From positions 741,038 to 805,037 of the forward strand of contig JAHQJS010000006.1 in assembly GCA_019057385.1 (NCBI GenBank): DNA of 64,000 bases. Direction: 5' to 3'. This document shows, one piece after another, positions 40,567 to 63,077 of this stretch (within the stretch, counting starts at the first letter, position 1; each line of letters opens with the position of its first letter). This DNA is from Candidatus Borrarchaeum weybense. GTDB taxonomy: Archaea > Asgardarchaeota > Sifarchaeia > Borrarchaeales > Borrarchaeaceae. The position numbers and the translations under genes were made by a program. The notes under the pieces are model-generated. The model worked only from the letters and a program-made list of their open reading frames with translations, made no database searches and was not told the origin of the DNA.

Positions 40567-40839
40567 GTCAATTACCCCACCTTAAAGGGTAGGGGCTTGG
40601 GTCGTGAGATCTGAGAGCAATTAGTTGATTAGCCTAAGAGAGGTCATATAGTGTATGACGGTATCTACGTTATCAGGAGAGTTAAAGAACACACCAAGGG
40701 ATGCTTCTCTAGTCCCTTGCTCTGTAAACGGTGGTTTAAACAGAGAGGAAACGCTCAGTGATCATCGTAGAGTACTGACTGATAACCTTGGCGAAGAGAA
40801 CCAACCTCCTGTGACGCACGTTAAAGGAGGAGATAGGAC
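40567..40839 (+). ncRNA. IscB omegaRNA scaffold
   Basis: Structured region between left end and iscB; mostly near-identical to 47087-47365(-). Confidence 0.8.
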
Positions 40840-47086: not shown

Positions 47087-47365
47087 GTCCTATCTCCTCC
47101 TTTAACGAGTGTTAAAGTCGGTTGGTTCTCTTCGCCAAGGTTATCAGTCAGTACTCTACGATGATCACTGAGCGTTTCCTCTCTGTTTAAACCACCGTTT
47201 ACAGAGCAAGGGACTAGAGAAGCATCCCTTGGTGTGTTCTTTAACTCTCCTGATAACTCAGATACCGCCATGTGTGTTTCACCACGACCTCTCTTAGGCT
47301 AATCAACCAATTACTCTTGTTCCTCACGGGACAAGCCCCCCTCACTTGTTAGGGGGGTGATTGAC
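47087..47365 (-). ncRNA. IscB omegaRNA scaffold
   Basis: Mostly near-identical to 40567-40839. Confidence 0.8.
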
Positions 47366-60686: not shown

Positions 60687-61397
60687 TTGTATGTGAGGCA
60701 TATGTGCTTTGAGTGTTATTTATTAGCCGTTGTCCCCCCACAAGCAGGGCCTATTAGCGATTTTCTTAATTTCATCTATTGGGTCGGCTCCCTTGTATGC
60801 TTCCAATGGGAAGTTGCAACTTTTAGAGTTGGAGCATATTATTTACCTGTATGCTCTGGATGTTTAGGAATTTATGCTGGCGCGTTGATTGGTTTTGCAA
60901 GCCTTCCAAGATTGTCTAATCTGTCAAAACAATTATTTCAACTTAGATTTGCAATCCCTCTAATGTTACCTCAATCAGTCTATTTCTTTATCTTGAATTT
61001 TGAGCGGTTCTTCCTTCATTCCTATCCGATTCCAGGAATAAAGGAAATCTATTTTGTAATGGGATTGCTTTTCGGTTTTGTTTTATGCAATATTGCTTTT
61101 AGACTCGCCCTAATAGAAGATGAGTTTCACCCCGCCGTTGATCAACATCTTACCAGATTTGTAACATATTTAGGCTGGTTATTTCTTCCTGGCGTTTTAA
61201 TAGGCATTGTCAGCATAATGCTTGGACTTGTTTTACTTGGATATGCAGTTGATATGCTTCTTCTGGTTCTAGGAAGTCTTTCTTTTCTTTTAGGATTAGG
61301 AATTCTTCTAGTTTTAATAGTAGGCTTCTCTCTTCGATTTGCAGTGGGTTTATTCAAGACTTCTTATGATTATTTTACGCAAGATCGCTCTAATTGA
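60687..61397 (+). CDS. DUF2085-like membrane protein
   Basis: VCFQ....F......PVCSGCLGIYAG; multiple TMs. Confidence 0.75.
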   Translation: MYVRHMCFECYLLAVVPPQAGPISDFLNFIYWVGSLVCFQWEVATFRVGAYYLPVCSGCLGIYAGALIGFASLPRLSNLSKQLFQLRFAIPLMLPQSVYFFILNFERFFLHSYPIPGIKEIYFVMGLLFGFVLCNIAFRLALIEDEFHPAVDQHLTRFVTYLGWLFLPGVLIGIVSIMLGLVLLGYAVDMLLLVLGSLSFLLGLGILLVLIVGFSLRFAVGLFKTSYDYFTQDRSN

Positions 61398-61699
61398 TCT
61401 ATATGCAAATACCCGTGTTTCTTTTTATCTAAAAAAACTCTGGACAATCATATACACGTTCAAGTTTTTTAGAAGCTAATGCTTTGCAGTTTTATAAAAA
61501 AAGATTTCACAAACCTTATTCAGCGTAGCAATCCTGCTCGCTAGATAACGTCGTTTTCGACAAAAAGGTATTACTCTGTTATAGCTTTTTGTATCACGCA
61601 TCGGTGTTTAAATCAGCGCGCGCGATTGTATTGACATAATGCTGTCTATAGCTCTATAGAGTAATCAAGAGCTATATAATAAAGTGGACATTTTTCTTG

Positions 61700-61718
61700 C
61701 AAAAAAAGGCTTAAATAG
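61700..61718 (+). promoter_or_regulatory. BRE/TATA promoter upstream of the ncRNA candidate
   Basis: CAAAAAAAGGC-TTAAATA about 22-28 bp before the structured RNA. Confidence 0.55.
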
Positions 61719-61738
61719 TTTTAACTATAAGGTATGGA

Positions 61739-62026
61739 TGGCAACTTGTGATCGGTAAAGAACCTTAGACGGAAAGAAAAACTGACACAAAGAAACATGG
61801 TGAAGAATCGGCCCTGAACTATGAAGTAAGTGTGTACGGCCGGACAGGATTCTGGAAAGATAAGGGGAAGATCGAGAATGAGCCTTAGAGGAAAAATCAA
61901 ACTAAGGTGAAGTGTAAGCCGTAGCACGAAAGTGAAACGGTTGTCGACTGAGAGGTCGAAAGCACGCGCGACGTAAAAATCGCGTAACCTGGAGCGAGGA
62001 AACCAAAAAGGCACAGCGGGTTGCCA
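61739..62026 (+). ncRNA. Unassigned ~290-nt structured ncRNA
   Basis: Closing stem TGGCAACTTG/CGGGTTGCCA; several internal hairpins; GC-rich relative to flanks; flanked by promoter and T-tract. Confidence 0.7.
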
Positions 62027-62027
62027 C

Positions 62028-62066
62028 TTTTCTTTTGGGATGTTTTTTTAACATCCTTTTTTTTTG
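62028..62066. terminator. T-tracts with GGATGTT/AACATCC hairpin
   Basis: Lies between the convergent ncRNA candidate and lipS1. Confidence 0.6.
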
Positions 62067-62081
62067 AAAACAGCTAAATAG

Positions 62082-63077
62082 TCAAGTTAAGATGTCGCTG
62101 ATGATAAGCGAGCAGCAGAGTTCTTTATGAATTATTTTAAGGTCAAGTGACTGTGCTTCTTCTACACCCGCATCGGTGATATAAGCAATTCCGTTTATTC
62201 CAGCTCGAATTGCGAGAATGTCAGTTTCTTCCTTGTGATATCCCTTTGGTCTGGCACAGCCTAACATAACTGGCTTATCCTGAAAAGTCAAACGTGCTAT
62301 AGTGATAATTTTGGCAATGGTTTCAGGTGATGGTGGCGTGACATTCTCCATTGGTGTTCCTTCTAGGGGCATTAATGCAACTATCACAATGGCATCAGGG
62401 TCATATTTAGACAGCATTTCTAATGCATTGATTTCTCCGTCTAGAGTGCCGTAATTGAGACCAACGACGACATGTGGTACAATTGGAATGTTAAATTCCT
62501 TAAGAAGTCTAATAGATTCTTCATATTTCTCGGGTGTTGCGTTTATATGGTAAACTGTTTCAATTGTGTCTTGACTGGCGATCACATCAAGCATAGCGGC
62601 ATCAATATGTGAATCTGCAAGAATTTTCGCGGTTTCCTTGTCGATAAGTCCTGTATGAACAACGACTTTTAATCCAAAACGTTCTTTTATAACTTTTAGA
62701 GCATTTGTATACTTTAAAAGAGGGACAAATCCGTGTTTATTTGCGCCTCCACTAATTAAAACACCCTTAGAACCCTTTTTGCTAAGTTCTTCACATAATT
62801 GAACTAATTCATCAGGAGAGCGTGCGGGTTTCATTGATTCTAGAATTTTAGACTGACAGTGATCGCAATTAAGAGCACATGCAGTTCCTGTAATACTTAT
62901 AGGCACAAAGGCGTTCGGAGATTCCTGCTTAAAACTTTCAATCTCATAATGAACTATGTTGGGAGCATAATTCCATAACAGGTTTCCAAAGTTTTTTCTA
63001 CGAAGATTAAAAGCATTTTCCATGTATTTTTTAAGTTCTGAGGAACTAGAGTTCAGAATCATCTTTGCTTGCGACAT
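62082..63077 (-). CDS. lipS1: Radical SAM protein, archaeal lipoyl synthase LipS1-type
   Basis: CALNCDHC plus GCAR and C-terminal CC motifs characteristic of LipS1. Confidence 0.75.
   Translation of the reverse strand: MSQAKMILNSSSSELKKYMENAFNLRRKNFGNLLWNYAPNIVHYEIESFKQESPNAFVPISITGTACALNCDHCQSKILESMKPARSPDELVQLCEELSKKGSKGVLISGGANKHGFVPLLKYTNALKVIKERFGLKVVVHTGLIDKETAKILADSHIDAAMLDVIASQDTIETVYHINATPEKYEESIRLLKEFNIPIVPHVVVGLNYGTLDGEINALEMLSKYDPDAIVIVALMPLEGTPMENVTPPSPETIAKIITIARLTFQDKPVMLGCARPKGYHKEETDILAIRAGINGIAYITDAGVEEAQSLDLKIIHKELCCSLIISDILT

Follow-up and report, generated by a model that had tools for sequence, protein, structure and literature searches.

What occupies the 684-nucleotide (nt) intergenic gap that lies between a DUF2085 gene and a radical-SAM gene in a 64,000-nt stretch of the Candidatus Borrarchaeum weybense genome (the whole stretch being referred to here as the window)? 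A first-pass annotation, made from the sequence alone, had proposed a novel structured RNA of Asgard archaea with its own promoter and terminator, and the best explanation of the locus is the gene for an undescribed, lineage-restricted and extensively structured noncoding RNA (ncRNA) of Candidatus Borrarchaeum. That this is a real, expressed RNA gene of a new family can be held with high confidence, and the probability that such a lineage-restricted gene exists together with the covariation-supported fold described below is put at roughly 0.8. The gene spans positions 61738-62032 on the plus strand, giving an RNA of about 295 nt (266-301 nt among homologues), and is present as one copy in the 4.18-Mb genome. 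Its composition differs from that of its surroundings, with a G+C content of 47% compared to 33% and 25% in the two flanks and 36% in the window, and with a purine content of 66%. Throughout, G000 denotes this genome, other G numbers denote the genomes of relatives, and L numbers denote single loci or contigs.

Homologues were found only in Candidatus Borrarchaeum, as nine sequences of which eight are clearly different, and the structure was built from those pairings that survive in all nine and was tested on a model-based alignment. The outcome is a two-domain fold, closed by helix P1 and including a loop-to-bulge pseudoknot, that is supported by covariation. The 58 pairs of its ten helices are paired in 96.5% of the alignment cells, as opposed to 30-38% when the 3' partners are slid by 1-3 columns, and 18 pairs have changed on both sides, against 0-6 in the slid controls. 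The plus strand of the locus has a calculated folding energy of -84 kcal/mol, compared to a mean of -65.8 for shuffled sequences (z = -4.13, with none of 200 shuffles folding as well), and the minus strand folds more weakly (z = -3.09).

All of the complementary segments listed in the first-pass annotation are in the sequence where they were said to be, and part of the secondary structure drawn from them stands. The closing stem is real, and the TCGAC/GTCGA and CGCGA/TCGCG stems are both real and covarying across the nine homologues. Two other stems of the original sketch are not conserved: GAATC/GATTC is broken in G002, L075 and L089, and the local CCTTAG/CTAAGG hairpin can be formed only in G000, the GAGCCUU segment pairing instead, in all sequences, with an AAGGCAC segment 120 nt downstream to form P6. 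The GGCC/GGCC pairing was correctly recognized, but belongs to a pseudoknot in which the terminal loop of P5 pairs with nucleotides just 3' of P4; in L089, a C to U change in the loop is matched by a G to A change in its partner, and these changes break the nested alternative predicted by RNAalifold. A further pair of RNAalifold helices, CUG/CGG and CCGG/CUGG, was rejected as contradicted by the homologues, and covariation is uninformative for a possible 3-bp CUG/CAG helix (61782-61784 with 61845-61847), which is invariant. In domain 2, relatives with expressed copies of the RNA add two compensatory pairs to P10 (61969C>T with 61982G>A, and 61970G>A with 61981C>T). The AGCCGT/ACGGTT hairpin of the earlier sketch, here termed P9b, is present in G000 and in two of the expressed relatives and missing in a third, and it is absent from seven of the nine homologues (G004, G002, G001, L075, L086, L094 and L089) and replaced by an unrelated hairpin in L085. 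Because of this distribution, P9b is a variable peripheral helix, and not a conserved active site.

Evidence for transcription comes from environmental RNA libraries. In 23 runs from 18 studies, 7-13% of the words sampled across an 801-nt stretch are present; the RNA accounts for 36% of that stretch. The small word shares in the 20 runs without a contig alignment were not used as evidence of habitat or expression. Contigs were aligned from four runs, each of a different metatranscriptome study: two from salt marsh, one from sediment and one from an unspecified source. The alignments comprise eight contig pieces that are 85-97% identical to the locus and cover only 61748-62024, with zero depth over 61500-61742 and 62040-62300, the flanks having been aligned for 238 nt upstream and 260 nt downstream. 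Seven of these contigs, with lengths of 98-242 nt, fall entirely inside the RNA, and one carries a sequencing adapter immediately ahead of 61748. The RNA is thus very probably expressed. It is probably also abundant and stable, given that libraries of 100-370 million letters yield an assembly of the RNA, though the archaeon is rare, but not of the sequences beside it.

The signals that flank the fold are consistent with an independent transcription unit. The core promoter, an A-rich B recognition element (BRE) followed by a TATA box, is identical in all eight different homologues, and oligo-T tracts beyond P1 are conserved in all of them, so that the promoter and terminator proposed in the earlier annotation are both borne out. 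P1 is tightly bracketed by these two signals, its 3' strand leading directly into the T-tracts. Because AAAAAAAGGCTTAAATAG ends 20-21 nt ahead of the first paired base of P1, the transcription start is predicted at about 61738-61741. The RNA would therefore be transcribed from its own BRE/TATA promoter and end at the oligo-T terminator, as is partly shown by the data above, and both ends of the primary transcript would be flush with P1. Between the T-tracts and the stop codon of the radical-SAM gene, G000 and G004 carry an additional hairpin with a T run that may be a bidirectional terminator shared with this convergent gene; the remaining homologues have other sequence at this position.

Upstream of the promoter lies a conserved block of about 100 nt, presumed to be a dedicated regulatory region of the RNA gene through which its expression would be controlled. 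Its motifs are CGCGCGCGAT, TTGACATA, a CTATAG-NN-CTATAG palindrome, GAGCTATATAA and AGTGGACA, the longer of which occur only once in the 4.18-Mb genome. The central dinucleotide of the palindrome is CT in G000 and AG in most homologues.

The RNA belongs to a new family, of a class outside Rfam. In Rfam 15, neither the G000 sequence nor the divergent homologues L089 and L085 gave a match at the gathering score or, noise apart, at E ≤ 10; a search of the whole genome for HgcG gave no match, and a full-text search of the literature found no description of this RNA. The earlier annotation had noted that signatures of RNase P, signal recognition particle (SRP) and OMEGA (obligate mobile element-guided activity) RNAs were missing, and had asked that the first two be located elsewhere in the genome. 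Archaeal RNase P RNA (RF00373) and RNase MRP RNA were judged by covariance model and by the conserved regions CR-I (GAGGAAAGUCC) and CR-V (ACAGAA...), which form the P4 pseudoknot; this identity was rejected, there being no match at E ≤ 10 at the locus and a true RNase P RNA on another contig (G000:C5:351144-351523, 207.9 bits) that carries the canonical GAGGAAAUUCC and ACAGAAAG. Archaeal SRP RNA (RF01857, with helices 5, 6 and 8 and an Alu domain) was likewise rejected, the true SRP RNA lying at C3:11011-11326 (168.6 bits). The HEARO or IscB/IsrB omegaRNA family (RF02033) has no match at E ≤ 10 here, as compared with 121-127 bits for the two true HEARO RNAs of the window. A role as guide scaffold of IscB or TnpB does not fit a gene that is single-copy and syntenic, with neither repeat copies nor an adjoining IscB/TnpB gene, and whose product has both ends paired in P1 and thus no free guide. 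A Y RNA of a Ro60 ribonucleoprotein (RNP) was rejected on the grounds that a genome scored as 100% complete has no TROVE match.

The family appears to be confined to one clade. A DNA search of 40 relatives recovered full-length homologues only in three genomes of the same genus, at 85%, 81% and about 71-76% identity. In G003, a fourth genome of the genus (69% complete), the contig stops just after the DUF2085 gene, and the locus is for this reason considered unassembled rather than missing. A pattern scan of metagenome contigs yielded 31 loci, three of them real, and one new sequence; following the neighboring radical-SAM gene into other assemblies added four more homologues, of which two, L085 and L089, are clearly more divergent, with scores of about 190 bits where the others reach 300-324 bits. 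When about 185,000 species-representative genomes were scanned with a degenerate pattern, the three records found were all of the Borrarchaeum clade. The full-length covariance model (R1) found nothing outside the genus in six genomes of the class and 150 genomes across the phylum, and a domain-1 model (R2) run on the 150 phylum genomes gave a best outside match of E = 0.015 per genome, which is not credible. A 50-nt hairpin in a small-genome Asgard relative (L045:1319-1368, minus strand, in G027:C23) resembles the P4-P5 arm (GGUGGUAGA...CCCUGA) and matches both models weakly, at E values of about 0.004-0.009; an unannotated K-loop small RNA is one possibility and chance resemblance another. 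G005, of the same class and 80% complete, is uninformative, with a 44%-identical radical-SAM paralogue only and no match to DUF2085 or to the RNA. Radical-SAM orthologues extend down to 83% identity and the next proteins, from Thor-, Loki- and Hel-archaeal records, are about 51% identical, and therefore the clade is isolated. Within it, the order TldD, DUF2085, RNA and convergent radical-SAM gene is kept in every assembled genome locus and in seven metagenome contigs.

A number of points weigh against the interpretation developed so far, or limit how far it can be taken. The evidence for RNA consists of assembled contigs from relatives and not of reads from this organism, and it shows neither the strand nor the exact ends. 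A 643-nt contig (run X3, record 5) starts inside the RNA at 61856 and, at lower depth, continues beyond the 3' end for about 450 nt, possibly as read-through, as antisense to the radical-SAM mRNA or because the library contained DNA. The homologues all come from one genus, so that many of the changes were inherited together, and the result of column shuffling, in which none of 500 shuffles reached the observed values on four of five measures, overstates significance as a consequence of this close kinship; a stronger case comes from the slid controls and from the number of distinct compensatory pairs. Covariation in the pseudoknot amounts to a single compensatory event, in L089. Synteny has an exception in a 2-kb contig (L093:1411-2146) where a 93%-identical radical-SAM gene is followed by a leucine-rich repeat gene in place of the RNA, which means that the locus has been rearranged in that organism or that its RNA is located elsewhere. 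The -1b.-1n position of the kink-turn (K-turn) candidate discussed below is U, C or G opposite A (N.A), which is unusual, and an alternative register with tandem G.A pairs and no bulge, which fits the observed changes less well, keeps some residual probability. Lastly, neither an experiment nor a partner protein ties the RNA to any function.

Table 1. Positions, within the 64,000-nt window, of the structural elements of the RNA, its expression signals and the adjoining genes.
Feature	Position	Strand	Description	Conservation
DUF2085 gene	60687-61397	+	Membrane-protein gene; upstream neighbor of the RNA	
Upstream block	61617-61699	+	Conserved block of about 100 nt	Nearly invariant in 6-8 homologues; rest of gap poorly conserved
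Core promoter	61701-61718	+	A-rich BRE and TATA box, AAAAAAAGGCTTAAATAG	See text
P1	61739-61749 with 62016-62026		Closes the molecule; 11 bp	100% paired in 9 sequences; 2 compensatory pairs
P2	61752-61756 with 61871-61875		Closes domain 1	U-A to C-G compensatory change in 3 sequences
P3	61763-61766 with 61862-61865			2 compensatory pairs
P4-P5 arm	61785-61835	+	Domain 1	
P4	61785-61789 with 61831-61835			3 compensatory pairs
Internal loop between P4 and P5	61790-61795 opposite 61824-61830		RRGAAA opposite RAGUAAN	Invariant
P5	61796-61800 with 61819-61823			1 compensatory pair
Candidate K-turn above P5	G61802-A61817		N-GAA-GA ... GA-A; bulge G61802 A61803 A61804; G61805.A61817 and A61806.G61816	See text
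Pseudoknot	61808-61813 with 61838-61843		UCGGCC (P5 loop) with GGCCGG, two nt 3' of P4	6 of 6 bp in 9 of 9 sequences
P6	61879-61886 with 62008-62015		UGAGCCUU with AAGGCACA; closes domain 2	3 compensatory pairs
P7	61890-61891 with 62003-62004		GG with CC	GC/GC in L085; GAC/GUC in L089
Three-way junction	61906-61989	+	Domain 2; P8, P9, P9a, P10	
P8	61906-61908 with 61987-61989		GGU with ACC	Invariant
P9	61912-61915 with 61962-61965		GUGU with GCAC	GCUG/UGGC in L089
P9b	61917-61942		AGCCGU-AG-CAC-GAAA-GUG-AA-ACGGUU; variable extra hairpin	See text
P9a	61945-61958 (61945-61949 with 61954-61958)		Hairpin with GAGA loop	1 compensatory pair
P10	61966-61971 with 61980-61985		Conserved GUAAAA-loop hairpin of domain 2	4 compensatory pairs
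T-tracts	62028-62036	+	TTTTCTTTT; terminator region 62028-62058	See text
Second terminator-like hairpin	62039-62058		GGGATG-T7-AACATCC, then T9 run; between T-tracts and radical-SAM stop	G000 and G004 only
Radical-SAM/BATS gene	62082-63077	-	Downstream neighbor, convergent with the RNA	

How might such a molecule work? In the fold supported by covariation, P1 carries two domains, the first a long irregular arm of P2, P3, P4 and P5 whose terminal loop pairs with the bulge beyond P4 to form the pseudoknot, and the second built on P6 and P7 and leading into a three-way junction that holds the GAGA-tetraloop hairpin, the GUAAAA-loop hairpin and a slot for variable extra hairpins. Two recurrent modules may lie within the arm. 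By its motif consensus, the invariant AGUA/GAA internal loop between P4 and P5 appears to be a loop-E (sarcin-ricin)-like motif. Above P5, a K-turn is on balance likely: the positions that would form its tandem G.A pairs (G61805, A61806, G61816 and A61817) are invariant among homologues, whereas the positions not fixed in a K-turn differ among them (G or A at L1, A or C at L3, U or G at 3n, and U, C or G at -1b). The genome encodes L7Ae (C6:319257-319532), and the RNA is probably bound by this protein. The 5-bp upper stem is topped by a K-loop-like motif with an invariant tandem G.A. By bending the arm back on itself, the K-turn would allow the pseudoknot to form, L7Ae would bind and lock both, and the loop-E motif and the A-rich junctions would offer a platform for a protein or for a tertiary contact. 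On this model the RNA would act in trans, as the stable core of an RNP, whether as a scaffold or as an RNA that titrates a protein, and a scaffold or titration function of this kind is adopted here tentatively, as the leading possibility among several.

The alternative that fares best is a trans-acting regulator or sponge that works through its purine-rich unpaired segments (GGAAAG, GAGGAAAAAUC, GAGGAAACC and CUGAGAGGU), either by pairing with pyrimidine-rich mRNA leaders or the 3' end of 16S ribosomal RNA (rRNA), or by sequestering a protein that recognizes GGA or GAGG. The 66% purine content noted above, the occurrence in loops and junctions of several GGA and GAGG motifs that are invariant, an apparent abundance in RNA libraries, and an elaborate conserved upstream region that suggests regulated expression would all suit such a role. 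However, complementarity to 16S and 23S rRNA is at chance, with no 10-mer and with 9-mers at shuffle expectation, covarying helices take up most of the molecule, a situation uncommon among antisense regulators, and no target was found; a regulator or sponge is rated as unlikely.

Slightly less probable again is a new ribozyme or a ligand-sensing RNA without a dedicated protein, whose core would consist of the pseudoknot, the K-turn, the GNRA tetraloop and the A-rich internal loops. In its intricacy the RNA does resemble ribozymes and large riboswitches: its two domains include a pseudoknot, a GAGA tetraloop and unpaired purines that are invariant. One version of this idea places the active site in P9b, an AGC-containing hairpin similar to group II intron domain V or to the U6 internal stem-loop (ISL); AGCCGUA...ACGGUU, a G.U wobble and a GAAA loop are common to P9b and domain V. 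The distribution of P9b set out above, absent from most homologues and different in L085, means that it cannot be a conserved active site, and moreover it has a 2x2 internal loop in place of a 2-nt bulge and helices shorter than those of domain V. The Rfam models Intron_gpII (domains V and VI) and U6 have no match at E ≤ 10. Transcript ends that are flush with promoter and terminator give no sign of self-processing, and the open reading frame (ORF) list of the locus has no same-strand gene downstream of the RNA that a riboswitch could regulate.

It is also conceivable, if improbable, that the RNA is the core of an Asgard-specific RNP machine with an activity of its own, be it a new ribozyme or an L7Ae/Nop5-type particle assembled on a K-loop like that of the U4 5' stem-loop and acting on other RNAs.

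A very divergent member of a known archaeal class, such as an H/ACA-like or C/D-like RNA, a paralogue of RNase P/MRP or SRP RNA, or a domesticated IscB/TnpB scaffold, is a poor fit and is given little weight. The P4-P5 arm resembles an H/ACA hairpin in having a lower stem, a two-sided internal loop, a 5-bp upper stem, a K-loop-like motif and an invariant ACA (61844-61846), the GUGAAGA...CUGA sequence is reminiscent of C'/D' boxes, and true HEARO RNAs do occur in the same window. Yet tandem H/ACA hairpins cannot be reconciled with the covarying long-range helices P1, P2, P3 and P6, and the distance from the pocket top to the ACA is 19-20 nt and not 14-16, with a strand of the pseudoknot separating the ACA from P4. 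No site for the pocket was found in the 16S and 23S rRNAs of the genome even at 3+3 bp with wobble pairs allowed. As for the C/D class, terminal C and D boxes are lacking (the 5' end is GUGAUCG and the 3' end is without CUGA), there is no rRNA complementarity of at least 10 nt, and matches to small nucleolar RNA (snoRNA) families are at noise level only. The locus has no Rfam match to HgcG, HEARO, RNase P, MRP or SRP at E ≤ 10, and the canonical RNase P and SRP RNAs found elsewhere, the neighbors identified by Pfam as DUF2085 and radical-SAM with no IscB/TnpB ORF adjoining, and the paired ends that leave no free guide all speak against the remaining variants.

That the locus is not an RNA gene at all, but a 97-amino-acid minus-strand ORF (61721-62014) or a 3' untranslated region, terminator or antisense of the radical-SAM gene, is hardly credible: the ORF exists and one contig does extend past the 3' end, but the ORF has no Pfam match, homologue lengths of 266, 275, 276, 281, 297 and 301 nt reflect insertions and deletions that are not multiples of three, the two minus frames that are open from end to end in several sequences are a composition effect of the purine-rich plus strand, the substitutions in helices are compensatory, and the invariant promoter directs the plus strand.

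Other features of the window and of related contigs were recorded in passing. Since it contains two full-length HEARO matches, at 40567-40805 (plus strand, 126.8 bits) and 47121-47365 (minus strand, 121.4 bits), the window carries OMEGA-type mobile elements, which are unrelated to the RNA studied here. A TnpB-type gene with OrfB_IS605/Cas12f1-like domains (L085:1-808), found about 2 kb from the radical-SAM gene in a contig of the Borrarchaeum clade, fits an abundance of OMEGA elements in the lineage. Elsewhere in G000, the rRNA genes exceed their Rfam models, with a small-subunit match of 2666 nt for 1478 positions (C5:332567-335232) and a large-subunit match of 4804 nt for 2987 model positions (C5:335393-340196), which suggests large insertions, either introns or expansion segments.

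Asgard archaea are the closest prokaryotic relatives of eukaryotes and, to our knowledge, have not been mined for large structured ncRNAs; apart from rRNA, the RNAs of RNase P and SRP, and guide RNAs, almost no large and intricately folded ncRNAs are known in archaea. Here, a promoter, a terminator and a two-domain fold that covaries, has a pseudoknot and likely includes K-turn and loop-E modules make for a well-supported RNA, probably plentiful enough for assembly from small sediment metatranscriptomes. It may be of limited general importance, as it is known from one genus only, and the interest lies in its structural intricacy and in its Asgard host. It could reveal a new RNP or ribozyme, and, if the L7Ae/Nop5-type particle considered above were true, the lineage closest to eukaryotes would hold a third kind of L7Ae-dependent archaeal RNP, in addition to those of the C/D and H/ACA types.

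Parts of the RNA can be likened to several known systems. As in group II domain V and the U6 ISL, P9b starts with an AGC paired as A-U, G.U and C-G and has a GAAA loop. However, it occurs in some members of the family only, has 6+3 bp where domain V and the U6 ISL have about 9+5 bp, and a 2x2 internal loop in place of their 2-nt bulge, and neither flanking intron domains nor a match to RF00029 or U6 at E ≤ 10 accompany it. In overall length the RNA is near the three-hairpin forms of the archaeal H/ACA guide RNAs (Pf9, and the three-hairpin Pf7/Afu4, which are the HgcG family of Rfam, RF00064). Unlike these, its pocket is the invariant AGUA/GAA loop-E-like motif, the loop of its hairpin is tied into a pseudoknot, and long-range helices close it.

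The putative K-turn invites two further comparisons. In the SAM-I (S-adenosylmethionine) riboswitch, a K-turn in P2 lets the P2 loop pair with J3-4 as a pseudoknot, and the arm of the Borrarchaeum RNA would similarly fold its loop back to its own base, CGGCC in the P5 loop pairing with GGCCG just 3' of P4; unlike SAM-I, it is a much larger, two-domain RNA with no same-strand gene downstream and no match to the SAM-I model of Rfam. The 5' stem-loop of U4 small nuclear RNA (snRNA) and the K-loops of box C'/D' RNAs, which are the sites of 15.5K/Snu13 and L7Ae, share with the candidate K-turn of this RNA a stem, a 3-nt bulge, tandem G.A/A.G pairs, a very short non-canonical stem and a small loop, and its GUGAAGA...CUGA is one mismatch from RUGAUGA...CUGA. 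It differs from them in having no terminal C/D boxes, no rRNA antisense element, no known pairing partner like that of U4 with U6, and no match to snRNA or snoRNA families of Rfam above noise.

As a whole, the molecule is most readily compared with OLE RNA, and also with ROOL, GOLLD and the raiA motif, which are independently transcribed and abundant, as it probably is, and like it are hundreds of nucleotides long, with many covarying helices and invariant unpaired nucleotides; it shares with these large, orphan, 'ornate' bacterial RNAs a function that cannot be deduced from sequence. It has no sequence or Rfam-model similarity to any of them, is archaeal, occurs in one genus only and is half the size of OLE. 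OLE sits with oapA, whereas the Borrarchaeum RNA is without co-located partner-protein genes. OLE RNA contains a K-turn that its partner protein must recognize (PMC9723947). Unlike that partner, the presumed K-turn binder of the Borrarchaeum RNA is L7Ae, a general archaeal protein.

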